Source: Demequina sp. (GTDB taxonomy: Bacteria; Actinomycetota; Actinomycetes; Actinomycetales; Demequinaceae). Taken from it: a stretch of DNA of 64,000 bases. Positions 6,856 to 23,602 of the stretch are shown one piece after another. The notes beneath the pieces were generated by a model. That model was not told where the DNA came from, made no database searches, and was given only the letters and a program-made list of their open reading frames with translations. How positions within the stretch are numbered: the first letter of the stretch is position 1; each line of letters begins with the position of its first letter. The translations under genes were made by a program, and so were the position numbers. The DNA lies in the NCBI GenBank assembly GCA_030148645.1, contig JASBTB010000007.1, positions 12,571 to 76,570 of the forward strand, given 5' to 3'.

Positions 6856-6874
6856 CCGGCGCACCTGATGGTCA
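6856..6874 (+). promoter_or_regulatory. ICE motif copy 2 (GGCGCACCTGATGGTC-A) upstream of the ArdC-like operon
   Basis: CACCT at 6862-6866, then gatggtc, then A; function inferred. Confidence 0.45.
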
Positions 6875-12239: not shown

Positions 12240-12260
12240 TCGCGGTGCACCTACAGGGCA
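12240..12260 (+). promoter_or_regulatory. ICE motif copy 4 (GCGGTGCACCTACAGGGC-ATG), leaderless geometry
   Basis: CACCT at 12248-12252, 7 nt, then ATG 12260; no SD sequence. Confidence 0.5.
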
Positions 12261-12967
12261 TGAAGACTCCCGACCTGTCTGCCCCGCGTTCGCGTCACCG
12301 GCTGATCGCCGCCCTCGCCGCCCTCGTGGCGGTCCTGGTGCTGGCCGGTGTCGGCGTCTACGGCCTCCTCAACGGACCACCCACCGCCAACGAGGACGCC
12401 AACCGCGGCTCCGGGCCTGGACCGGCTGTGACCGCACCCAGCGATCCGGCGTTCGGCGATCCGGCCCCGACCGCGACACCGCGTCTGCCAACGGTGCGGG
12501 CCTCGGCTGATCCGGAGACCTTCGCCCGCGCCGTCGCGACGGCGCTGTTCGCCTGGGACACGGCCAGCGGGTTCATGCCCCTGGACTACACCTCGGTCGT
12601 CCTCGCCGTCGGCGACCCCTCGGGTGCCGAGCAGGCCGGGCTCGCCTCCGACATCGCCACCTACCTGCCGAACCGGGACGCCTGGATCGAGCTGCGCCAC
12701 TACGCCACCGCCCAGCACCTGATCATCGACCGTGTGTACGTCCCCGACGCGTGGGACGCGGCCGTCGAACAGGCGCAGCCCGGGCAGCTCGCCGAGGGCA
12801 CCATCGCCTACACGATCGAGGGAACCCGCCACCGCACCGGCCTCTGGAACGACGAGACCGTCACCTCCGAGCATCCGGTGGCGTTCACCGTGTTCCTCGT
12901 CTGCGGCCCGACCTACGACACCTGCCACCTGCTGCGGTTGTCCCAGCTCGACAACCCCCTCCGATAG
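12260..12967 (+). CDS. Membrane-anchored conjugation protein (possibly VirB8/TcpC-like)
   Basis: N-terminal TM LIAALAALVAVLVLAGVGVYGLL; lies directly before the wall hydrolase; role inferred from position. Confidence 0.65.
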   Translation: MKTPDLSAPRSRHRLIAALAALVAVLVLAGVGVYGLLNGPPTANEDANRGSGPGPAVTAPSDPAFGDPAPTATPRLPTVRASADPETFARAVATALFAWDTASGFMPLDYTSVVLAVGDPSGAEQAGLASDIATYLPNRDAWIELRHYATAQHLIIDRVYVPDAWDAAVEQAQPGQLAEGTIAYTIEGTRHRTGLWNDETVTSEHPVAFTVFLVCGPTYDTCHLLRLSQLDNPLR

Positions 12968-12982: not shown

Positions 12983-14644
12983 ATGGTGAAGAAGCTCGCC
13001 CTCGCGGCCCTCGCACTGGTGTTCCTGGCGCCGTCGCTGGTGTTGATCGGGGTCGGGGTGGTGATGAACCCTGCCGCCTCGGCCTCCTGCACCGTGGCCG
13101 GCACAAGCGTCAGGGTCGGCGACGTCCCCGACGAGCTGGAGGTCACCACCGCCAACGGCGAGACCTTCACACTGAACAATCAGCAGCTCACGCATGCGGC
13201 GACGATCATCGAGACCGGGTCCGGCATCGACGGGGTGACCCAGGACGGGCTGGTGATTGCGCTGATGGCGGCGCTGACCGAATCCACCCTGCGGATGCTG
13301 TCCAACACGAGCGTCTATCCGGAGTCGGCGGACTATCCCAACGACGGCGACGGTTCCGACCACGACTCCCTGGGGTTGTTTCAGATGCGGCCGCAGTCCG
13401 GGTGGGGCACCGTCGCCGAGCTGATGGACCCGACATATCAGGCGCAGGCGTTCTTCGGCGGTCCTACCGGCCCCAACCATCCCTCACCGCGGGGCCTGTT
13501 GGACATTCCCGGCTGGGAGCAGATGGACAAGGGCGAGGCCGCCCAAGCCGTCGAGGTGTCCGCCTACCCTGACCGGTACCGCAACTACGAGCCCGTCGCC
13601 GAGACCATCCTGACCACCCTCACCGGCTCCACCACGACCGCCGACGCAGTCAATGCGGGGATGTCGACCGACGACACCGTGGCTCCAGCGGTTCAGACGG
13701 TGGCGGAGTCTTCGCGGGTGGTGTTCCCGGTGCCCGCGGGCACCTGGGTGCTGACCAGCGAGTACGGGCCGCGGGTCCATCCGATCTCCGGGGAGAGCTC
13801 GTTCCACACCGGCACCGACTTCGCCGCCCCGGACGGCGCCCCGATCCTCGCGGCGGCCGATGGCACCGTCACCGTCGCCGAGTCCTCCGGCGGCTACGGC
13901 GGGCTCATCGTCATCGAGCACACCCTCAATGGGCAGACCGTGGCCACCGCGTACGGGCACATATGGGAGACCGGCATCCACGTCCAACCCGGCGACACCG
14001 TCACTGCCGGCCAGCACATCGGCGACATTGGCTCCTCCGGCAACAGCACCGGCCCGCATCTGCATTTCGAGGTCCGGACCGGCGGCACCGACGGCGAGCA
14101 CACCGACCCCGCCGCGTGGCTCAACGACCATGATGGCGCCGACCTGCCCGAACCCGAGACCGGCGCCCCGGACGGCTGCGACCCCGACACCGGAACTCCC
14201 GGCGGCGACCCGGACCCCCTCGACGGTGACCCGGACCGCCTCGTGGATGCCCCCACCAGCGACGGGCAGATCACCGCTCGGATGCTGCACCTGTACCAGC
14301 AGGGCACCGCCGCCTTCCCCGACACCTCCTGGGCCTGCTACTCACCGCGTCCCGGCACCCGCTCCGAACACCCGCTCGGCCGGGCCTGCGATCTGACCTT
14401 CGGCAACGCCATCGGCCAGCACCCCACCCCGGCGCAGCTCGAAGCTGGCTGGGACGTCACCAACTGGATGCAGGACCACGCCGAAACCCTCGGTGTCGAG
14501 TACCTGATTTGGCAGGGCAAGATGTGGTCACTGGCCCGCGACGCCGATGGTTGGCGCGACTACAGCGGCGGCGGCATGCACGACCCCGGCGACGTCACCG
14601 GCGGCCACTACGACCACCTCCATGTCACCGTTCGGTCCAACTAG
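12983..14644 (+). CDS. Multidomain conjugative cell-wall hydrolase (lysozyme-like + M23 + putative LAS-type peptidase)
   Basis: MAALTES...DSLGLFQMRP..GWG; M23 HTGTDF and HLHFEV; C-terminal EHPLGRACD...HYDHLHV. Confidence 0.88.
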   Translation: MVKKLALAALALVFLAPSLVLIGVGVVMNPAASASCTVAGTSVRVGDVPDELEVTTANGETFTLNNQQLTHAATIIETGSGIDGVTQDGLVIALMAALTESTLRMLSNTSVYPESADYPNDGDGSDHDSLGLFQMRPQSGWGTVAELMDPTYQAQAFFGGPTGPNHPSPRGLLDIPGWEQMDKGEAAQAVEVSAYPDRYRNYEPVAETILTTLTGSTTTADAVNAGMSTDDTVAPAVQTVAESSRVVFPVPAGTWVLTSEYGPRVHPISGESSFHTGTDFAAPDGAPILAAADGTVTVAESSGGYGGLIVIEHTLNGQTVATAYGHIWETGIHVQPGDTVTAGQHIGDIGSSGNSTGPHLHFEVRTGGTDGEHTDPAAWLNDHDGADLPEPETGAPDGCDPDTGTPGGDPDPLDGDPDRLVDAPTSDGQITARMLHLYQQGTAAFPDTSWACYSPRPGTRSEHPLGRACDLTFGNAIGQHPTPAQLEAGWDVTNWMQDHAETLGVEYLIWQGKMWSLARDADGWRDYSGGGMHDPGDVTGGHYDHLHVTVRSN

Positions 14645-14650
14645 CAATTA

Positions 14651-14806
14651 TTACGTTAGATGTAATCCGCGACGGCCGGAATCGTGCGTATTCGCTGGTC
14701 AGGCAAGGGTACCAGGGGTCACTGATCTGAGCCTTGAACCCGGCTCTTGACCAGGGGAAACGCACCAAGTCTTACGTTAGATGTACTTTTCATACATTAG
14801 ATGTAA
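14651..14806 (+). repeat. TTACGTTAGATGTA x2 plus a third TTAGATGTA core
   Basis: Exact 14-mer at 14651-14664 and 14772-14785; core again at 14797-14805. Confidence 0.9.
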
Positions 14807-14816
14807 GACTGTTGGA

Positions 14817-15944
14817 GTGGACTTCGAGGACGGGAACCGCGCCGGATCGGTGACGGCGTTGCGGGCGGGCAACGTGGCGTTGCTGCGTCCGGCGGAGCAG
14901 GTCTTCGATGACATGCTCACGGGCTGGTCGGCGCAGCAGGTCTCACGGATGCTGAACCCCAAGACGATCGGGGCGCGCTTGTCGCAGGTGCGCCGGTTCG
15001 CCGTGTTCTGCGGGAGCTTGCCGTGGGAGTGGTCGCCCGCCGATGTCGAGGAGTGGACGACCGAGCTGGTCTCCGGCGACAAGCCGTGCTCGCACGGCAC
15101 GATCCGCTCGTATCAGAACGCGGTCGCGTTGTTCTGCGACTACCTGACCGACCGCCGCTACGGCTGGATCGAGCGATGCGAGGAACTGTTCGGCACTCAT
15201 CCGGTGCAGGTCTGCCATGAGTGGAACACCGCGATCCACACCAGCGATCACGAGGCACGCCCGGCGGTCCGGCCACTGTCGCGGGAAGAGGTACAAGCCT
15301 TCTTCGACTACGCCGACGATCGCGCCGACCATGCTCGCACGCGCGGAAAGAAGGGCTGGAAGTCGGTGTTCCGCGACGCGACCCTGTTCAAGATGATCTA
15401 CGCCTTCGGGCTGCGCCGCCGCGAGGTCGGGATGCTGGACCTGCATGACTTCACCCGCAACCCGACCGCGACCGAGTTCGGCCGGTACGGGGTCTGCAAC
15501 GTCCGCTGGGGCAAGGCCAGCAAAGGCTCCCCGCCCCGTCGGCGGGCGGTGCTGGCGGTGTTCGACTGGACCCGCCCAGTGATCGAGGAATACGTCACCG
15601 ACGTGCTGCCGCTGTTCGACACGGCAGGCGCCGGGATGCTGTGGCCGACCGAACGACAATCCAGGATCACGGGCAGCTACGTCGGGATGAGGTTCGCCGA
15701 GTACCGCGACGACCTCGGCTTCGACGCCGCGCTGCACCCGCACTGTCTGCGGCACTCGTATGTGACCCATCTGATCGAGGACGGCTTCGACCCGCTGTTC
15801 GTGCAGCAGCAGGTCGGGCACCGGTGGGGATCGACCACAGCCCTCTACACCGGCGTCTCGGGCGACTACCGCAACCGCACCCTGCGCCGCGCCCTGGACG
15901 CCGCGTTCACCCCACCGACCGCAACCGAGGAAGGATCACGCTGA
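14817..15944 (+). CDS. Tyrosine recombinase/integrase
   Basis: FGLRRREV (R), HCLRHSYVTH (HxxR), VGHRWGSTTALY (H, Y); start set at GTG 14817. Confidence 0.95.
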   Translation: MDFEDGNRAGSVTALRAGNVALLRPAEQVFDDMLTGWSAQQVSRMLNPKTIGARLSQVRRFAVFCGSLPWEWSPADVEEWTTELVSGDKPCSHGTIRSYQNAVALFCDYLTDRRYGWIERCEELFGTHPVQVCHEWNTAIHTSDHEARPAVRPLSREEVQAFFDYADDRADHARTRGKKGWKSVFRDATLFKMIYAFGLRRREVGMLDLHDFTRNPTATEFGRYGVCNVRWGKASKGSPPRRRAVLAVFDWTRPVIEEYVTDVLPLFDTAGAGMLWPTERQSRITGSYVGMRFAEYRDDLGFDAALHPHCLRHSYVTHLIEDGFDPLFVQQQVGHRWGSTTALYTGVSGDYRNRTLRRALDAAFTPPTATEEGSR

Positions 15945-16285
15945 TGACGAAGACCGTCGCCTACCACTGGCACCTGCGCAAGATCATGAACGAGCACGGC
16001 ATGAACGCCACCACCGAACTGGTGCCGCTGCTGGCCGACCGGGGCGTGGTGATGACCTCGACCCAGGTCTACCGGATCGTCACCGGCGAGCCGGAGCGGT
16101 TGAACATGCGGCTGCTCGCCGCGCTCTGCGACATCCTCGACGTCACCCCCAACGACCTGATCGAGCCCTACGTCGCCACCAGCTCGCGGCGCGGACGCAA
16201 GACCGGCACCACCGGCACCAGCACGCAGTCCAAGCCCAGCCGGAACCGTCCAACTCGCGCAGTCATCAAGCCTGCTGGGGACTGA
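15944..16285 (+). CDS. Cro/C1-type HTH protein
   Basis: WHLRKIMNEHGM..TTELVPLLADRGV.MTSTQVYRIVTGEPERLNMRLLAALCDILDVTPNDLI; TGATG coupling with the integrase. Confidence 0.88.
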   Translation: MTKTVAYHWHLRKIMNEHGMNATTELVPLLADRGVVMTSTQVYRIVTGEPERLNMRLLAALCDILDVTPNDLIEPYVATSSRRGRKTGTTGTSTQSKPSRNRPTRAVIKPAGD

Positions 16286-16294
16286 CCGGACCAG

Positions 16295-17959
16295 ATGGCG
16301 AGCACGATCGTCCCCGGTGAGTGTTTCCGCTGCGGACGGGTGAGGAACCTGCGCTGGAACCACACACTCAACCGGGGTGAGTGTCGGGCTTGCCGCGCCC
16401 GCCGCTCACCCCAGGAGACCTGCACCGGCTGCGGCAGGCAGCGGCGAGTCAACGCCCGCACCAGCGACGGCGGCGCTATCTGCACCACCTGCTACGCCCG
16501 AAACCGCGCCGGTGAGGATGCTTGCGAGGGATGCGGCACTATCGGCCCGCTCGCCACCCGAGCTGGCGGGAAGTCCGATGGATCGCGGAATCTCTGCGTT
16601 CGCTGCTACCGGCACCCGCGTCGGTCCTGCGGCGTCTGCGGCCGGCTCAAGCGAGTCGCGTTGAAAGCGACCGCCGCGAGCCCGGACGTCTGCCCGACCT
16701 GCTACCAAGCGCCGGTCATCGACTGCTCCATCTGCGGCCAGCGGTCGCTCGGCCGGCGAACCACCAACCACGGCCGGCCCCGTTGCTTCGCCTGCCAAGC
16801 CACCCAGCAGATCGACGCCGCGCTCACCGGCCCGGACGGCACGATCCGACCCGAGCTGAAACCCGTCCGCGATGCCCTGACCGAGCTACGCCAACCCCGC
16901 TCGCTGCTGAACAACTGGCACGACTTGCCGAGCCTGCACCTGCTCACCGACATCGCTCAAGGCCGGCTCGACCTGTCACACGATGCTCTCGATGCCCGCC
17001 CGCAAGTGTTCTCGGTGACCTACCTGCGCGCGATGCTCGTCGCCTCCGGCGCGTTGCCGCCCCGGGACGAGAACGCCGCCCGGCTACACCGCCACGCCGC
17101 CGAAGCCGGCGCCGACATCACCGATCCCGAGCTGCGCGGCGTGCTGTCCCGCTATGCCCGCTGGCACGTCGTCGGCCGCGCCAAGACCAACCGCCACGGC
17201 CACCTCACCGCTCATGTCGCCGCACGCTGCCGCAGCGACATTCACACCGCCCACGCCTTTCTCGACGACCTGACCGCGGGCGGTCACACCCTCGACGACT
17301 GCCCGCAAGCCTGCGTGGACGCCTGGCTCAGCACGAGCCGCAGCACCCGCCTGGGGTTCGTCCGCTGGCTCACACGAGGCGGCTACCTACCCCGAGTCAC
17401 GTTGCCCGAACCCGTCGCGGCGAAAGACCCCGCCCATCAGGTTGACGCCGAAGATCAGCTGGCCCTTGCCCGCCGACTCCTGCACGACTCCACCGTCGCC
17501 AGCATCGAGGATCGCGCCGCCGCCTGCCTGATCCTGCTCTATGCCCAGCCCGTCGCGAAGATCGCCGCCCTCACCACCGACGACATCGAGGTCCGCGACA
17601 CGGGAACCTATCTGCGGCTCGGCCGCGAACCGCTGCTGCTGATCCCGCCTCTGGACGGGCTGGTCACCGCGCTACCGGTCGTCAAGCCGTTCGGCACTGC
17701 GAGCATCCTGGCTGATGCCCGGTGGCTGTTCACTGGCAAGAACGCGGGCACCCATCTTCATCCCGCTTCACTCATGCGGCGGATGAACCAGCTCGGCATC
17801 TTCACCCGCGCCAGCCGGAGCACCGCGCTACTGCACCTGGCCTCCACGACCCCGCCCGCCGTGTTCGCCTCGCTCATCGGCATCCACATCACCACCGCGA
17901 CCCGCTGGGCTGAACTCACCGGCTCAGCCTGGAACACCTACGCCGCCGCCCGACGCTGA
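16295..17959 (+). CDS. Ten-CxxC zinc-ribbon protein with a degenerate tyrosine-recombinase-like C-terminus
   Basis: CxxC pairs CFRC, CRAC, CTGC, CTTC, CEGC, CVRC, CGVC, CPTC, CSIC, CFAC; C-terminal LILLYAQPVAKIAALTTDDI...WLFTG...RASRSTAL..LASTTPPAVFASLIGIHITTATRW. Confidence 0.8.
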   Translation: MASTIVPGECFRCGRVRNLRWNHTLNRGECRACRARRSPQETCTGCGRQRRVNARTSDGGAICTTCYARNRAGEDACEGCGTIGPLATRAGGKSDGSRNLCVRCYRHPRRSCGVCGRLKRVALKATAASPDVCPTCYQAPVIDCSICGQRSLGRRTTNHGRPRCFACQATQQIDAALTGPDGTIRPELKPVRDALTELRQPRSLLNNWHDLPSLHLLTDIAQGRLDLSHDALDARPQVFSVTYLRAMLVASGALPPRDENAARLHRHAAEAGADITDPELRGVLSRYARWHVVGRAKTNRHGHLTAHVAARCRSDIHTAHAFLDDLTAGGHTLDDCPQACVDAWLSTSRSTRLGFVRWLTRGGYLPRVTLPEPVAAKDPAHQVDAEDQLALARRLLHDSTVASIEDRAAACLILLYAQPVAKIAALTTDDIEVRDTGTYLRLGREPLLLIPPLDGLVTALPVVKPFGTASILADARWLFTGKNAGTHLHPASLMRRMNQLGIFTRASRSTALLHLASTTPPAVFASLIGIHITTATRWAELTGSAWNTYAAARR

Positions 17960-17968
17960 CGACCAAGG

Positions 17969-18415
17969 TCACTCCCGCTCCGTCTGAAGCAAGGTCGCGG
18001 TCTGCTCTACCCAGCGTCGTTGCCTGCCCGTCTCGACAGCTCGCCGGTGATAGTGGGAACGGACCCACGCCACCGCGTCTTCTGGCGCGACACCGCTCAT
18101 CGTTGCCAGCAGCGCCAAAGCCGTCCCGGTCCGCCCGATGCCGCCGCCACACCCGATCTCGACTCGCTCCTCACCGGCACGTTCCCACGCCTCACGCAGC
18201 GCCGTCGTCGCGTCGTCGGTCGAGTCCGGTAGCCGGAAGTCTCGCCACCGCACCCAGCGATGAGGCCAAGGACCAGGCGCTGGGTCACGGCCAAGTAGAT
18301 AGACCGCGAAATCGGGGGCAGGCACATCGCCGCGCGGCCGGCGCACGCCGACGCCGCGGATGCGTCGCCCGTCGGGCAACACCACCACACCCGGCTCGTC
18401 AGTCCATGCGTCCAC
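17969..18415 (-). CDS. Small protein-tyrosine/dual-specificity phosphatase-like protein
   Basis: WRDFRLP acid loop and Cx5R motif IGCGGGIGRTG. Confidence 0.85.
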   Translation of the reverse strand: MDAWTDEPGVVVLPDGRRIRGVGVRRPRGDVPAPDFAVYLLGRDPAPGPWPHRWVRWRDFRLPDSTDDATTALREAWERAGEERVEIGCGGGIGRTGTALALLATMSGVAPEDAVAWVRSHYHRRAVETGRQRRWVEQTATLLQTERE

Positions 18416-18465
18416 ACTTCAACGCTAGCCCGACGGCGGCGGTCCTGCCTGCGCACCTCGCCAGC

Positions 18466-18513
18466 ATGGATTTCGAACGCTTCGAATACTTGCGATCCCC
18501 GGTTGGTCAGTAA
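18466..18513 (+). CDS. Putative 15-aa leaderless small ORF MDFERFEYLRSPVGQ (copy A), preceded by ICE motif copy 5
   Basis: CACCT at 18454-18458, 7 nt, then ATG; near-identical to 22826-22873. Confidence 0.45.
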   Translation: MDFERFEYLRSPVGQ

Positions 18514-18633
18514 TGACCACGCGACAAGTAGTGGTTAGTTGTCTGGATAACGCCGATTCGCCTGACTAGGCGAGGGTAGCGGCAGGCCGAGAAGCGGGTC
18601 CCGGAAGCGGCTGCTGGTGAGGAAGATGGGGAC

Positions 18634-18714
18634 GTGGACTTCGGGGACGGGAAGCAGACCTGGATCGGTGGCGGCGGCGAAGCAAGTCTCGACGATATGC
18701 TCACTGGGTGGTCT
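18634..18714 (+). pseudogene. Degenerate 5' fragment of a paralogue of the 14817 integrase
   Basis: gtggacttcggggacgggaag vs gtggacttcgaggacgggaac (14817); DDMLTGWS shared; about 30 nt deleted between the two matching blocks. Confidence 0.8.
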
Positions 18715-19014
18715 GGGAGCGGTCCGGGTGCACGGTGTCGGTGCGGGGACAGGTGGCTCGCCGCCAGCTGTTCGACAGTGACACGGACGAAGGGGCACCG
18801 CGGCACCGATTGCCGCATATGGTCGAGCCGGTCGTGCGCGGTAAACTGGATGAGGACCTGGCCATCACCAGTTGGCCGAGTCAGCCAGCTCCGAGTCCAG
18901 GCCACAGCTGAGCAGACACCTCGAAGCCGATCCGGGTGTTCTGGCCCATACGGCTAGTTTTGCGGAGATCCTGCCGCGGGGGTTCCTTGTCCTGAGGAAG
19001 AGAGAGCACGAGTC

Positions 19015-19662
19015 ATGGCGCGTCTTGCTGTTCTGGGTGGCACCGGCTATACCGGAGGCCACATTGTCGCCAAGGCGGTGCGGGCGGGGCACCACGTCAC
19101 GTCCTACAGCCGCACGGCCCCGTCCGAACCGGTCGATGAGGTCACGTACCGGACGGGGTCGTTGACGGACGCGGCGATCCGCGAGCACGCAGTGGCCGGG
19201 GCGGATGTCGTGATCGGTGCCCTCGCCCCGCGGGGTGAGCTGGAGGACTCCCTGGCAGGGGTGTACCGGGAGGTGGCCGGCCTGGCCGCGGCCGGTGGGG
19301 TGCGGTTCGGGGTGGTGGGCGGGTTCAGTGCGCTACGGCCGGCGGAGGGGGCTCCGCGGTTCTATGAGTCCGGGGAGCTGCCGCCGGAGTTCGCCGCTGA
19401 GGCCCGGACGATGGGCGCGGTGCTGGACTGGTTGCTCAGCGACGCTCCGCAGGGACTGGATTGGTTCTATGTGAGCCCGGCAGCGAACTACGGCTCCTAT
19501 GTGCCTGGTGAGGAGTTGGGCCGGTACCGGATCGGCGGGGAGGTCGCTCTGTTCGATGCTGAGGGGAAGTCGGCGATCAGCGGACCGGACTTCGCCGCGG
19601 CGATCGTCGCTGAGATCGACACGCCCACCCACCGGCGGGCTCAGTTCTCCGTCGCCTACTGA
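19015..19662 (+). CDS. NAD(P)-dependent oxidoreductase (atypical SDR, NAD(P)H-binding)
   Basis: LAVLGGTGYTGG Rossmann motif; VVGGFSAL, WFYVSPAA, SAISGPDFAAAI. Confidence 0.9.
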   Translation: MARLAVLGGTGYTGGHIVAKAVRAGHHVTSYSRTAPSEPVDEVTYRTGSLTDAAIREHAVAGADVVIGALAPRGELEDSLAGVYREVAGLAAAGGVRFGVVGGFSALRPAEGAPRFYESGELPPEFAAEARTMGAVLDWLLSDAPQGLDWFYVSPAANYGSYVPGEELGRYRIGGEVALFDAEGKSAISGPDFAAAIVAEIDTPTHRRAQFSVAY

Positions 19663-19775
19663 GTTCCTGGGCTCTCGCGGGCTCAGCCGCATGACCGCGC
19701 CGGCCCGGCGATCGTTACCGGGCGGGCACGCTCAGGAGGCCGGGCCTGCCGCACCGTCAGGCACGAGCGCGTGGG

Positions 19776-20441
19776 TCATCGGACGAGAAAGATGAGGATG
19801 GCCAGGCTCGCGGCGGCTGCGGTGAAGTACAGCGCGGCGATCTTGCCGCTGGGCTTGGTGTGACCGGTGGCGTAGCGGTTGTAGAGGGTTTGCAGCCGGG
19901 CTCGGAGGCGGTCTTGGTAGAGCAGGCCGATGATCAGGACCGCGAGGGTCGGCAGGGCGTAGATCGCGGTGTAGCCGATCAGCACGGGCACCGCGGTCTC
20001 GGGGCCGATGCCGGTGTCGATGAGGCGTTCGACGGCCAGGAACATCGGGAACGCGTTAGGGATGTCGCTGATCGTGGCGACCAGACCGAGCGGAAGCGCG
20101 GTCCAGGCGTTCACCCAGGACGGCAGCCCGTACCCGCGCCGGGGGCGCGCGGTGAACCGGCGGACGCCGAGAACGATGAAGACCACCGTGATGATCGTGA
20201 ACAGGATGCGACGCAGCCACAGCGTCAACCCGTCCAGCCAGGTCTCGGCGGCGTTGAGCCCGAAGTAGAGCAGCAGCGTGAAGGTCCCGAACGTCACGAA
20301 CGCCCCGACCGCGTACGCCCACCCGGTGGCCGCGGGCCGCTTGGCGGCCAGCAGGATCACCACGACGATCCAGATCGTGGAGACGTTGACCGAGTCCAGC
20401 AACGCCAAGCCCACCAGGGTGAGCAGCAGCCCCACAGTCAC
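19776..20441 (-). CDS. GAP/Sap-family (peptidoglycolipid-addressing-like) membrane protein
   Basis: GLALLDSVNVSTI, ISDIPNAFPMFLA and Y..IYALP hydrophobic pattern; GTGA overlap with TetR. Confidence 0.7.
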   Translation of the reverse strand: MTVGLLLTLVGLALLDSVNVSTIWIVVVILLAAKRPAATGWAYAVGAFVTFGTFTLLLYFGLNAAETWLDGLTLWLRRILFTIITVVFIVLGVRRFTARPRRGYGLPSWVNAWTALPLGLVATISDIPNAFPMFLAVERLIDTGIGPETAVPVLIGYTAIYALPTLAVLIIGLLYQDRLRARLQTLYNRYATGHTKPSGKIAALYFTAAAASLAILIFLVR

Positions 20442-21031
20442 CGCGGATCACGTGCGCCGCCCCCGCCGGATGTGCCGGGTGCACTGGGGGTCTCGGTCGT
20501 GTAGGCGAGGGTGGTGAGGTGGTTCGCGATCCTGGCCCGCATAGAGGGGTGCAGGGGTGTGGTGAGGGACTCGATGAGCCAGAGCCCGTCGGCGGCCAGG
20601 CGGGCGATGAGCTGGCTCAACTCACCCGGGGAGATGTCTGCATGCTCGGGCAGTGGCGGGGTCCACCGGGCCAGGACCCCGTTCCAGGGGGCGTGCATGG
20701 CGGGGTCGTTGACGGTTTCGAGCATCAGCAACAACTCGGCCCGGGTCGCGCTGTGGGTCGCGACCTGGGCGTAGGCGGCCAGACGCTCAGCATCACTGGC
20801 CCGTTCGGCGGGTTTGCCCGCGGCCTCGGTGAGAGCGGTCTCCCACTGTTCGGCGAGGTGCTCGTGCAGCGCCTGCAGCATGACCTCGCGGGTGCCGAAG
20901 TGATACAGCAGCCCGCCTTTGGTCATGCCCGCGGCCTCGGCCACGGCCTCGAAGGTCACCGCGGTGACCCCGCCGGCCTCGATCACCCCCAGGGCCGCAT
21001 CGAGGATCTCGGTCCGCTTGCTGGGACGCAT
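20438..21031 (-). CDS. TetR family regulator
   Basis: MRPSKRTEILDAALGVIEAGGVTAVTFEAVAEAAGMTKGGLLYHF. Confidence 0.93.
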   Translation of the reverse strand: MRPSKRTEILDAALGVIEAGGVTAVTFEAVAEAAGMTKGGLLYHFGTREVMLQALHEHLAEQWETALTEAAGKPAERASDAERLAAYAQVATHSATRAELLLMLETVNDPAMHAPWNGVLARWTPPLPEHADISPGELSQLIARLAADGLWLIESLTTPLHPSMRARIANHLTTLAYTTETPSAPGTSGGGGARDPR

Positions 21032-21056
21032 AGCCTCTGCCTCCACTCCCGCCCGG

Positions 21057-22559
21057 TCAGTGGTTGCCCGAGAAGGCCTGCGACTGAGTCCCCGGCCCGT
21101 GGTGGCGCAGCAACCGTCCGGTGACCGCGGCCCCGACCGCCAGGACCACGGCGAGGATGATCATCGTGACCAAGAACCCGGTGTCGAAGGCACTGCTCGC
21201 CGCCTCGATGATCGCCCGGTCCCCGCCCGCTGTCGCCAGCGCATCCGACAGGCTCTCGTGCGCACCCTCCGGCGCGCCGGCCGGGAGCCGCACGGTGGTG
21301 GTGTAAACGAAGGTGAGCAGGCTGCCCAACAACGCGACAGCGGTCAGGGACCCGAACTCATACGACACCTCCTCGACCGAGGACGCCATCCCGGCACGGC
21401 GGGCGGGCACATTGCCCACAATCGCGGTCGAGGCCACCGACATCGCCCCACCCAGCCCGGCGCCGGTAACCAGCAGCCCGGCAACCAACACACCGAACAC
21501 GTCGGCCTGCACACCGATGATCACCACGACCACCCCGAGCGAGGCGACCGCAAGGCCCCCGGCGATCAACGGCAGCAGGCCGATCCTGTGCAGGAACGCC
21601 CCGCCCAACAGCGCGGTGGGCAGCGACCCGATCGCGACCGCCGCGACCAGCAGCCCGGCCTCCAGGGGGGTGAAACCCTCCACAAGCTGATACCGCTGGG
21701 TCGTGACCAGCTGGGACCCGCCGATCGCGAACATCGAGAACGCCGCCGCCAGCACCCCGGCGCTGAACGCGGGATTGCGGAAGATCGAGAACTCCAGCAG
21801 CGGCTGCTCCAAGCCCCGCTGACGGCGGACGAACAGCACCGACCCGACCACCGCGGCCACCAAGCCCGCACCAACGATCACCCAGTTCTGCGGGGAATGC
21901 GCGAGCTCCTTGATGAAGAACACCGCACCCACCAGCGCGACCATCGCCTGCAACGACGACACCAGGTCCCACCTCTTGGACGGGTCGGGGTCGTTGGGCG
22001 GTGCGATCAGCACCGCCGCGATCAACGCGGCGATCACCACGGGCACGTTGATCAGGAACACCGAGCCCCACCAGAAGTGCTCCAGCAGCACCCCGCCCAC
22101 GATCGGGCCCAGCGCCGCACCCACCACCGCAAGGCTCCCCCACACCGCGATCGCGAAATTGCGCTCACGCTCAACCTCGAACGAGACCCGGATCAGCGCC
22201 AGCGTGGCCGGCATCATCGCCGCCGCGCCCACCGCCAGCACCGCACGCGCCGCGATCAGCAGACCCGCCGACGGCGCGAACGCCGCCCCCAACGACGCCA
22301 CCCCGAACACCACCAGACCGATCAAAAACATCCGCCGGCGCCCGATCCGGTCCCCCAGCGTGCCCGAGCCCAGCAACAGGCCCGCCATCACCACCGGATA
22401 GGCGTTGATGATCCACAAGCTCTGCGACCCCGACGCCCCCAACTCCTCGGTCAACGTCGGCAACGCCGTATACAGGATCGAGTTGTCCAGAGTGATCAAC
22501 AGCAGCCCCGCCGCCACCGTCACCAGCAGACCCCACCGCTGCCGCTTGCTCAAACTCAC
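21057..22559 (-). CDS. 14-TM DHA2-type MFS efflux pump
   Basis: LITLDNSILYTALP, WIINAYPVVMAGLLL..GTLGDRIGRR, WGSVFLINVP. Confidence 0.93.
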   Translation of the reverse strand: MSLSKRQRWGLLVTVAAGLLLITLDNSILYTALPTLTEELGASGSQSLWIINAYPVVMAGLLLGSGTLGDRIGRRRMFLIGLVVFGVASLGAAFAPSAGLLIAARAVLAVGAAAMMPATLALIRVSFEVERERNFAIAVWGSLAVVGAALGPIVGGVLLEHFWWGSVFLINVPVVIAALIAAVLIAPPNDPDPSKRWDLVSSLQAMVALVGAVFFIKELAHSPQNWVIVGAGLVAAVVGSVLFVRRQRGLEQPLLEFSIFRNPAFSAGVLAAAFSMFAIGGSQLVTTQRYQLVEGFTPLEAGLLVAAVAIGSLPTALLGGAFLHRIGLLPLIAGGLAVASLGVVVVIIGVQADVFGVLVAGLLVTGAGLGGAMSVASTAIVGNVPARRAGMASSVEEVSYEFGSLTAVALLGSLLTFVYTTTVRLPAGAPEGAHESLSDALATAGGDRAIIEAASSAFDTGFLVTMIILAVVLAVGAAVTGRLLRHHGPGTQSQAFSGNH

Positions 22560-22584
22560 GTCATCACACCTTTCCGGAACCGAA

Positions 22585-22638
22585 CTATCACCACCCGTAA
22601 CTATACCATACGTACGATACAGTTACGACTGGTGATAG
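22585..22638. promoter_or_regulatory. Long imperfect palindrome, probable TetR operator upstream of the MFS
   Basis: CTATCACCAcccGTAACT...AGTTACgacTGGTGATAG with central ATACGTAC. Confidence 0.7.
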
Positions 22639-22825
22639 GTGGCCGGGCTCCACACCAGCCTTGAACGCACAACCCGGACCCTCAGAAAGACACCGAAGCG
22701 GACAGCGCGCACGTGCAGCAGTCCCAACAGAGCCTCCCGAGAACCGGCACACCACCCGTCGCAACAGCCGCACCAACGCCCCACCCAGCTGACGCCCCCT
22801 GCACCCCGATGCACACCTGAACAGC

Positions 22826-22873
22826 ATGGATTACGAACGCTTCGAATACTTGCTTACGCCGGTTGGGAGCTGA
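22826..22873 (+). CDS. Putative 15-aa leaderless small ORF MDYERFEYLLTPVGS (copy B), preceded by ICE motif copy 6
   Basis: CACCT at 22814-22818, 7 nt, then ATG; its TGA ends 5 nt before the pilin-like ATG at 22879. Confidence 0.5.
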   Translation: MDYERFEYLLTPVGS

Positions 22874-22878
22874 GCGGC

Positions 22879-23145
22879 ATGGACGTGTTCCCCGACTTCG
22901 ACGGCCTCGGCGGGATCGGTGACCTGCGCGAGGTGATCGGCGCGCTGCTCACCTTCGTCCTGGTGATCGCCGTGTTGATGCTGATCGTCTGTGCCCTCAT
23001 CTGGGCACTCGCCGCCGCCAACGGCAACCACGCTGCCGCGACCAAGGCGCGCGTCGGCGCCTGGACCGCGCTCGGTGCCGCGGTCCTGGCCGGCGGCGGG
23101 GTGGCGTGGCTGAACTGGCTCATCGCCCTGGGTCAGCAACTCTGA
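22879..23145 (+). CDS. Pilin-like (DUF6112 / VirB2-like) membrane protein 1
   Basis: MDVFPDFDGLGGIGDLREVIGALLT...; two hydrophobic helices. Confidence 0.75.
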   Translation: MDVFPDFDGLGGIGDLREVIGALLTFVLVIAVLMLIVCALIWALAAANGNHAAATKARVGAWTALGAAVLAGGGVAWLNWLIALGQQL

Positions 23146-23203: not shown

Positions 23204-23226
23204 GCGGGCGGTGCACCTGACCGACG
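23204..23226 (+). promoter_or_regulatory. ICE motif copy 7 (GGGCGGTGCACCTGACCGAC-G)
   Basis: GTGCACCTG at 23211-23219; followed by a hairpin-rich leader and AGGAG before 23282. Confidence 0.5.
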
Positions 23227-23281: not shown

Positions 23282-23602
23282 GTGTTCGATCTCATCACCA
23301 CCGTCCTGGCCGCACCCGCACTGGTGCCGATGGACATCAACATCGACCCCAACGATTCCGGTCTTCCCGGGATCGCCCAGCTGCGCACCATCGTCGGCGC
23401 GGTCATGACCATCGGCCTGATCCTGTCCGTCCTCGCCCTGATCATCTCGGCGATCGTGTGGGGCTTCGGCGCCAACTCCTCCAATCCACATCTGGCCGGC
23501 CGGGGGAAGGTGGGCGTCCTCGTCTCCTGTGGCGCCGCGGTGATCTGCGGCGCGTCGGTGACGTTGATCAACTTCTTCTGGGACGTCGGCCAGCAGGTCT
23601 GA
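23282..23602 (+). CDS. Pilin-like (DUF6112 / VirB2-like) membrane protein 2
   Basis: IDPNDSGLPGIAQLRTIVGAVMTIGLILSVLALIISAIVWGFG...GKVGVLVSCGAAVICG; paralogous to 22879. Confidence 0.8.
   Translation: MFDLITTVLAAPALVPMDINIDPNDSGLPGIAQLRTIVGAVMTIGLILSVLALIISAIVWGFGANSSNPHLAGRGKVGVLVSCGAAVICGASVTLINFFWDVGQQV

Follow-up and report, generated by a model that had tools for sequence, protein, structure and literature searches.

A 64,000-nucleotide stretch of Demequina sp. DNA (contig JASBTB010000007.1; the window below, whose positions are used throughout) holds an actinobacterial integrative and conjugative element (ICE) of the type IV secretion system (T4SS) type, with genes for ParB, an M23 hydrolase, two DUF6112 proteins, a VirD4-type coupling protein and a serine recombinase. 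Within this ICE an open reading frame (ORF) of 15 codons occurs twice, and the second copy ends immediately before the first DUF6112 gene. What are these two mini-ORFs, and why are there two of them? An initial annotation had proposed leaderless upstream ORFs (uORFs) controlling a mating-pair operon, or small signalling or exclusion peptides. Here we suggest, with a probability of about 0.62, that each mini-ORF belongs to an element-end module in which a leaderless, translationally coupled mini-ORF would re-express an interrupted mating gene.

The mini-ORFs lie in a direct repeat at the ends of two inserted modules

A repeat search returned one direct repeat of 57 nt, at 18450-18506 and 22810-22866, whose copies are 84% identical and spaced 4360 nt apart. 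Similarity between the copies breaks off sharply on both sides of the 57 nt. In the genome of origin (2.2 Mb, 152 contigs) the repeat, named T1, was found in these two copies only, and their 32-nt core matches at 97% with an E value of 2e-9, so the repeat is not due to chance. Both mini-ORFs were located exactly as initially described, 4360 bp apart, each with its ATG 7 nt after the end of CACCT and with TAA and TGA as the respective stops. The features that define the locus, including the two inserted modules termed E1 and E2, are as follows.

18450-18506, plus strand: T1 copy A, the right end of E1 and now the E1/E2 junction; CACCT at 18454-18458; mini-ORF at 18466-18513 with ATG at 18466, TAA at 18511-18513 and the product MDFERFEYLRSPVGQ.
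22810-22866, plus strand: T1 copy B, the right end of E2; CACCT at 22814-22818; mini-ORF at 22826-22873 with ATG at 22826, TGA at 22871-22873 and the product MDYERFEYLLTPVGS.
22865-22878, plus strand: displaced original end of the M23 gene (GGG AGC TGA) and Shine-Dalgarno region of DUF6112 (GGGAG), identical to uninterrupted ICE junctions.
22879-23145, plus strand: first DUF6112 (pilin-like) gene (PF19607, E 2.8e-45); its ATG at 22879 lies 5 nt after the stop of copy B, as the initial annotation had stated for the first pilin-like gene.
12983-14644, plus strand: M23 peptidase/wall-hydrolase gene (Pfam PF01551), ending ...VTVRSN-stop instead of ...VTVRAGS-stop.
14639-18504, plus strand: module E1, ~3.87 kb, which starts AACTAG and ends CCGGTT.
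18505-22864, plus strand: module E2, 4360 bp, with a left end related to that of E1 (GGTCAGTAATGACC...), an integrase remnant, cargo and T1 copy B.

To place the repeat in its context we compared the window with 59 loci encoding DUF6112 relatives in genomes of Micrococcales, Propionibacteriales and Mycobacteriales (loci are cited by L number). In about 40 of the 59 the M23 gene abuts DUF6112 directly and ends ...GGHYDHLHVTVRAGS at its stop codon (...HLHVTVRAGS-stop); GGGAGCTGAGCGGCATGG and GGTGCGTGATGG are examples of such uninterrupted junctions. Homology of the window to these loci breaks at 14637/14638 and resumes at 22865, showing that 8.2 kb, made up of two tandem modules, was inserted between M23 and DUF6112 just before the last, GG-initiated M23 codons. 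The M23 gene of the window now ends ...VTVRSN, followed by AACTAGCAATTATTACG..., and the TAG that closes it comes from the left end of E1 (AAC-TAG: Asn and stop). Similarly, the last codons and the TAA of copy A are supplied by the left end of E2 (GG-TCAG-TAA), which bears out an early suspicion that this stop derives from an adjacent inserted remnant.

The tandem arrangement is visible at both ends of the modules: the left ends of E1 and E2 align, the right ends are the 84% identical T1 copies, and the length of E2 equals the repeat spacing. Similar arrays occur in L047, L125 and L268. Each copy is thus very probably the right end of a module, and the two modules, inserted in tandem, separate M23 from DUF6112. 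The duplication noted initially was real, but its nature had been missed, as the copies are module ends and junction relics. Either order of arrival of E1 and E2 fits the junctions.

T1 carries a start signature shared with other genes of the ICE family

A hidden Markov model (HMM) built from the copies and run over the fetched loci detected T1 in L016, L035, L037, L039, L047 (twice), L048 and L049. Only L196, L197 and L198 were gained when a sequence model was run over the genomes of the order, and T1 is rare, being present in ~1% of genomes in the order. A metagenome scan used a pattern that proved too loose, with at least 120 matches; among the matches listed, nhmmer found one true T1, on contig L125. 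A phylum-wide pattern search allowing 3 mismatches gave matches no commoner than a reversed-pattern control, and a plasmid database yielded one DUF6112 match and no T1.

Alignment of 11 T1 copies revealed an invariant GC(G)CACCT, a free 7-nt spacer and an invariant (C)ATG (GTG in L048), followed by a GAT-TTCGAA-CGC-TTCGAA-TACTTGC block and then CGCCGGTT. The start codon keeps its place while the spacer varies, with ATG in 13/14 T1 copies and GTG in L048. The other sequence classes also have ATG or GTG 6-7 nt after CACCT. The T2 family, which is related to T1, occupies the same place beside mer, ars and CDF/ArsR cargo and consists of GCACCT-N7-ATG, 15-45 variable nt and CTATTCCGGCACTTCGATCATCCGACCCTGCCGGT.

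The same signature stands at genuine gene starts of the ICE. In the window the signature, its motif and the second DUF6112 gene have these positions.

12248-12262, plus strand: native GCACCT-N7-ATG of the ICE, at the start of the MKTPDLS... gene (12260-12967), upstream of M23.
23211-23219, plus strand: another GGTGCACCTG motif, situated after DUF6112 and ahead of the paralogue listed next.
23339-23602: second, diverged DUF6112 paralogue, ~37% identical to the first, which it follows in nearly every ICE; it lies behind its own GTGCACCTG motif.

The MKTPDLS gene has its ATG 6-7 nt after (C/T)ACCT in 30 of 31 distinct ICE lineages, and in the distant loci L270, L271, L273 and L275 DUF6112 itself starts in frame at an RTG 6-7 nt after CACCT. 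In 39 of 52 distinct loci the GGTGCACCTG motif follows the DUF6112 stop by 50-125 nt (0.2 occurrences per 200 nt would be expected from background), often after a hairpin and before the Shine-Dalgarno sequence of the next gene. The presence of the signature at MKTPDLS starts and at distant DUF6112 starts, and of its motif behind DUF6112, indicates that CACCT-N7-RTG, as judged from these alignments, is the layout of presumed leaderless gene starts in this ICE family. It does not resemble a sigma-70 promoter. At T1 it would act as a promoter, with transcription starting at the A of the ATG.

Canonical sigma-70 promoters and intrinsic terminators were considered as other expression signals, and none was found in or beside either copy. 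An ICE-wide form of the motif, G(T/C)GCACCT(G), also occurs near 6861, 10282, 26627 and 31404 in the window, and GGTGCACC is an 8-bp palindrome.

The frame that follows the signature ends beside the DUF6112 start or is fused to DUF6112 in most classes

In 85 distinct upstream regions and 8 more from a class-wide sample, we classified this frame for each element whose signature lies at most 160 nt from DUF6112. In 11 classes (T1, L037-type, T2a-c, T3a-b and T4-T7) the frame from the conserved RTG ends at -10, -8, -6, -2 or +1 (an ATGA overlap) relative to the DUF6112 start. In 6 classes it is fused in frame to DUF6112; such fusions, seen in L025, L197, L270, L271, L273 and L275, would make it an N-terminal extension of DUF6112 or make DUF6112 itself leaderless. 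It ends early, at -19/-23, in 1 variant (L039, L047b), and in 0 of the ~19 sequence classes examined does it cross the DUF6112 start out of frame. With three equally likely phases, the chance of finding 0/17 classes in the harmful phase is (2/3)^17, or ~0.001, and the distance from ATG to DUF6112 start is 2 mod 3 in 10/14 length classes (binomial p ~0.004), both figures referring to sequence classes that are not fully independent. The stop, whose position the initial annotation had proposed to follow upstream of DUF6112 relatives, is kept beside the start or lost by fusion, apart from the one early variant.

Related variants differ in length by 15, 6, 24 or 39 nt. Mini-ORFs range from 10 to 31 codons across classes, with ATGA, TGATG or TGA-N5-ATG as the context of the stop. 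T3, in which a block homologous to T2 is read in another frame, still ends on an ATGA overlap. In its 3' half T2 is similar to the end of the M23 gene, GHFDHLHVTVRAGS and stop (GHFDH...GS-stop), which is why T2 frames share the M23 frame as far as the M23 stop. Among the 14 T1 copies, 10 keep the ATG frame through the end of T1 (13-16 codons), 3 are frameshifted and 1 is fused to DUF6112.

In mycobacteria a 5' ATG or GTG is necessary and sufficient for translation without a leader, and leaderless small ORFs with RTGA coupling are more frequent than expected (PMC4633059). The mini-ORF stop lies inside the DUF6112 ribosome-binding region, and we propose that translation of the two is coupled or at least non-interfering. 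Translation of the mini-ORF and its coupling to DUF6112 are, on these grounds, reasonably likely. The initial proposal of a leaderless uORF accordingly gains support for copy B, through the signature at gene starts and the frame kept across variants, but fails for copy A, which has no pilin-like gene downstream.

The following sequence of events would account for the locus. Two related integrative modules would have entered one spot successively, before the final GG-initiated M23 codons, and the insert would separate DUF6112 from the operon by which it is normally expressed. T1 would compensate by providing the promoter-like GCACCT of the ICE itself, 7 nt and an ATG. From this ATG a short frame, in phase with M23, extends to the former M23 stop, which lies 5 nt ahead of the DUF6112 start codon. 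Ribosomes that load at the 5'-terminal AUG would then terminate at the DUF6112 ribosome-binding site, so that the two genes would be coupled or at least not interfere. What would matter is that translation takes place and where it ends, and not the peptide. Copy B would be the active one today, with copy A stranded at a junction that became internal once the second module had joined.

Several observations weigh against this model. No sigma-70 promoter (-35/-10 hexamers) is present in 18300-18620 or 22540-22900. The p value of the frame test rises to ~0.02 if T1 junction variants are counted once. In L039 and L047b indels close the frame 19-23 nt short of DUF6112, and the frame of L198 is also shifted. 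DUF6112 has a good Shine-Dalgarno sequence of its own (GGGAG) and may not need coupling. DNA of 65-70% GC often contains short open frames, and T1 and T2 could have inherited part of their frame agreement from the M23 3' end, to which they are similar. Lastly, the two junctions (left ...N/AACTAG, right CCGGTT/GG) share no identical att core longer than CGGT/GG.

T1 as a possible recombination or operator site

The rival that survives best holds that T1 is a recombination or operator site only, either the P-arm/attR side of the integrase-bearing element or the operator of a divergent promoter, and that its frame is incidental, having been inherited from the M23 3' end and being cheap to keep open in GC-rich DNA. 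Part of its support comes from the TTCGAA-CGC-TTCGAA block, which lies at +6 to +26 of the presumed transcript, beside the recombination junction. Across codons 2-9 of the 11 in-frame T1 copies, the 17 extra codons encode 17 extra amino acids with 0 synonymous variants (17/17), changes at the three codon positions are 8:8:3, and L039, L047b and L198 keep the DNA while shifting the frame. The lack of synonymous variation and the frameshifted copies together indicate that the block is constrained as DNA and not as codons, and it is probably a protein-binding site, either an operator or a recombinase arm. The early caveat that this block could be a binding site thus stays plausible, given the constraint on the DNA.

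E1 behaves as a mobile unit. Its sequence in L035 is 94.6% identical over 15505-18515 (E1 to the right end; the locus is cut upstream), the backbone being only 77-78% identical, and T1 adjoins DUF6112 directly in L035. In the L035 genome the left junction of E1 was found where an element of ~3.87 kb predicts it. This junction, with AACTAGCAATTATTACGTTAGATGTAATCC directly behind it, is also present in three further ICE lineages, four ICE lineages in all outside the window. It stands in each case directly ahead of the GG with which the last M23 codons begin; the right junction of E1-type elements reads CCGGTT/GG. E1, with its boundaries at 14638/14639 and 18504/18505 in the window, stands precisely before GG, also in L260, L261, L263 and L264. 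The module contains the following features in addition to T1.

14645-14816, plus strand: left-end region of E1, with three TTAGATGTA-type repeats that are kept in L260, L261, L263 and L264.
14781-15944, plus strand: tyrosine integrase of E1 (PF00589, E 1.5e-14).
15941-16285, plus strand: Cro/C1-type helix-turn-helix gene (PF13443, E 9.8e-13).
16295-17959, plus strand: gene for a 554-aa protein, function unassigned, common to L035 and L039.
17969-18415, minus strand: PTP/DSP-like phosphatase gene (PF22784, PF00102; CGGGIGRTG P-loop, CX5R), divergent from T1 copy A.

E1-type modules carry the phosphatase gene, which is also present in L049 and L035 and as a remnant in L047. A longer real gene ending in copy A (plus-strand ORF 18103-18513) was considered and rejected, the conserved coding frame there being the minus-strand phosphatase.

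Placed as an attR or arm site, T1 lies at the boundary of an insert that is missing from related empty sites, and the integrase lies near the opposite end (PF00589 in E1, a remnant in E2). Several T1-bearing modules elsewhere have no integrase within 3 kb. Excision is predicted to join ...CCGGTT to AACTAGCAATT... and to leave an empty site in which ...CGGTCC is joined to GGGAGCTGA. A simple lambda-like att site with an identical core was not seen at the junctions. An inverted repeat between CGAATAC of T1 and GTATTCG in the E1 left end (14690-14696) was also set aside, as it is a 7-mer only and poorly conserved in relatives. The ends of E1, if joined, would read CCGGTT+AACTAG, which contains the palindrome GTTAAC. 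Insertion at GG with no obvious core, and GTTAAC at the joined ends, may reflect a recombinase that tolerates heterology.

A site-only function would fit the constant position of T1 at a module boundary, the resemblance of the T2 3' half to the M23 end, and the entry of modules right after the CCGGTT of T1, as after the M23 end. However, it leaves unexplained why ATG or GTG stands exactly 7 nt from CACCT despite a free spacer, why the same signature marks true gene starts, and why T3-T7 frames end at or beside the DUF6112 start with length differences in multiples of three. We therefore consider it unlikely that T1 is a recombination or operator site and nothing else.

A role of T1 as structured RNA was likewise considered and rejected. 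Its RNA had no Rfam match at E <= 1, and folding gave z-scores of -0.16 to +1.09, none stronger than shuffled sequences; there was thus no sign of a riboswitch.

T1 ends modules of varied cargo in other ICEs

In every case T1 forms the DUF6112-proximal end of a segment that does not belong to the backbone. These segments carry CrcB in L016 and L125, a DUF3788 gene followed by HtpX/Hsp20 in L047, an SMR gene in L268 and the phosphatase alone in L049. Behind T1 comes the left end of a further module in L125, in L196/L268 and at copy A of the window (an ars operon, CopC/CopD, or E2), showing that tandem arrays are recurrent. In the window the second module is composed as follows.

18505-18760, plus strand: left end of E2 and decayed integrase N-terminus, from alignment to the E1 left end and integrase N-terminus, with deletions.
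19015-19662, plus strand: NAD(P)H-binding gene (E2 cargo, Pfam).
19776-20441, minus strand: SfLAP membrane protein gene (E2 cargo, Pfam).
20438-21046, minus strand: TetR gene (E2 cargo, Pfam).
21057-22559, minus strand: MFS transporter gene (E2 cargo, Pfam).
22585-22638: inverted repeat of 27+27 nt with zero spacer, between the MFS gene start and T1 copy B; probably the TetR operator of the cargo.

The genes between the T1 copies are cargo and not conjugation machinery. Across hosts, the cargo at the M23/DUF6112 junction includes MerA, ArsM/ACR3/ArsC, CDF/ArsR, CopC/CopD, CrcB, SMR, HtpX/Hsp20 and TetR/MFS; the hot spot is occupied in L015, L022, L025, L028, L046, L016, L125, L268 and L047, and at 19015-22559 of the window.

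Three loci show further arrangements. L037 has an internal T2-like block (...RLFRHFDHPTLPV...) at ~2351-2430, ~550 nt upstream of its terminal T1, forming a stacked array that mixes T2 and T1 ends. In L028 (1-3000) MerA and a T2 element come directly after ParB, and blastn detected neither M23 nor the MKTPDLS gene in this interval; the operon may have been replaced or deleted. The genome of L039 (G793, a 5-Mb metagenome-assembled genome) has at least 7 copies of the M23 end or the E1 left junction at 74-89% identity, on contigs C90, C179, C76, C107, C379, C105 and C218, and represents several ICEs or mixed strains.

A wider interpretation is that the M23/DUF6112 junction acts as an integron-like cargo platform, with serial capture before the GG after the M23 end or after an earlier CCGGTT. 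Modules with metal, fluoride and drug-efflux genes would each bring an adaptor made of the ICE promoter signature and a leaderless mini-ORF, and this adaptor would both keep the insertion from being polar and restore the site at which the following module is captured. This interpretation is speculative, and we regard it as quite doubtful.

It is improbable that T1 is instead a functionless relic, a fusion of the operon promoter and ATG with the M23 3' end that homologous exchange between ICEs carries along passively. The ends of T1 do resemble the native promoter/ATG and the M23 3' end, copy A serves no DUF6112 gene, and modules that lack an integrase carry T1 too. On the other hand, the 57 nt are far better conserved than their flanks in hosts of several actinobacterial families, and the motif, the ATG and the frame relation are kept in many independent variants.

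The mini-ORF peptide shows no sign of constraint

The initial annotation had suggested that codon-level conservation be examined, and the result was that the DNA of T1 is kept and its codons are not. The C-terminal residues and the stop of each copy come from adjoining DNA, and other sequence classes at the same place encode unrelated peptides. A conserved functional small protein was rejected on these grounds and for want of any synonymous excess. It is thus very improbable that the 15-aa products are functional peptides in signalling, exclusion or as pilus accessories, and that the duplication represents two diverged paralogues: the 15-codon frame is open in both copies, the F/Y and S/T changes between them are conservative, and small leaderless proteins with conserved sequence exist in mycobacteria (PMC4633059), but every variant in codons 2-9 alters an amino acid, three copies shift the frame, the T3-T7 peptides are unrelated (T3 even reading the T2-homologous block in another frame), the last residues are taken from neighbouring DNA, and the copies are junction relics with no gene duplication behind them. 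The pattern of changes argues that the mini-ORF peptide is not functional and that the signalling or exclusion peptide first suggested is not under selection.

Relation to known systems and implications

The individual parts of the proposed module are known. Leaderless coupled uORFs of mycobacteria (Shell et al. 2015, PMC4633059) likewise have ATG or GTG at the presumed 5' end, an actinobacterial host and an adjoining or overlapping stop. In contrast to those uORFs, the transcription start is here deduced from the sequence, the signature is GCACCT and not a TANNNT -10 element, and each insertion rebuilds the mini-ORF, itself part of a mobile module's end, from element DNA and the terminal codons of the gene that is interrupted. 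Tandem accretion is familiar from streptococcal ICEs, integrative and mobilizable elements and cis-mobilizable elements (CIMEs) of the ICESt1/ICESt3-CIME type (PMC7563491, PMC5812530), where related elements also lie head to tail in one target; as there, one element has a decayed integrase and the inner and outer junctions are similar in sequence. Unlike in the streptococcal case, the target lies inside the conjugation operon of another ICE and not in a chromosomal gene, and there is no long identical att core.

Integrative elements that enter gene 3' ends supply a replacement end, as AAC-TAG does here by completing the M23 gene after insertion in its last codons. The difference is that the opposite element end here builds a mini-ORF from the displaced original stop, which would be coupled to the next gene. 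Outward promoters of mobile elements (insertion sequences, integron Pc) provide a further parallel, since an element-end promoter would, on our interpretation, drive the adjacent host gene. Unlike those promoters, the motif copies the regulatory signature of the host ICE, so expression would stay under ICE control. The backbone (ParB, M23, the DUF6112 pair, VirD4-type protein and serine recombinase) is like that of the T4SS-type actinobacterial ICEs of Ghinet et al. 2011 (PMC3218068), a paper in which neither the junction module nor the GCACCT motif nor the hot spot for cargo is described. A full-text literature search for DUF6112 returned a single paper, on an unrelated matter. Leaderless coupled uORFs, tandem accretion, insertion in gene 3' ends, outward promoters and T4SS-type ICEs are each known, and it is the combination that appears undescribed: an element end that copies the start signature of its host ICE and, at a site where cargo is repeatedly inserted, rebuilds a coupling mini-cistron out of its own DNA and the final codons of the gene it interrupts.

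If the proposed module is correct, a false lead is removed, as there would be no conserved 15-aa peptide to pursue. A mobile element could occupy the conjugation operon of another element without silencing it, and silencing would be avoided by a copy of the host-ICE start signature and a throw-away mini-cistron that hands ribosomes on. The M23/DUF6112 junction would represent a cargo hot spot (mer, ars, cop, CDF, crcB, SMR, TetR/MFS) in a widespread actinobacterial ICE family, and GCACCT-N7-RTG would serve as a tag for leaderless starts and regulatory units in these poorly studied elements.

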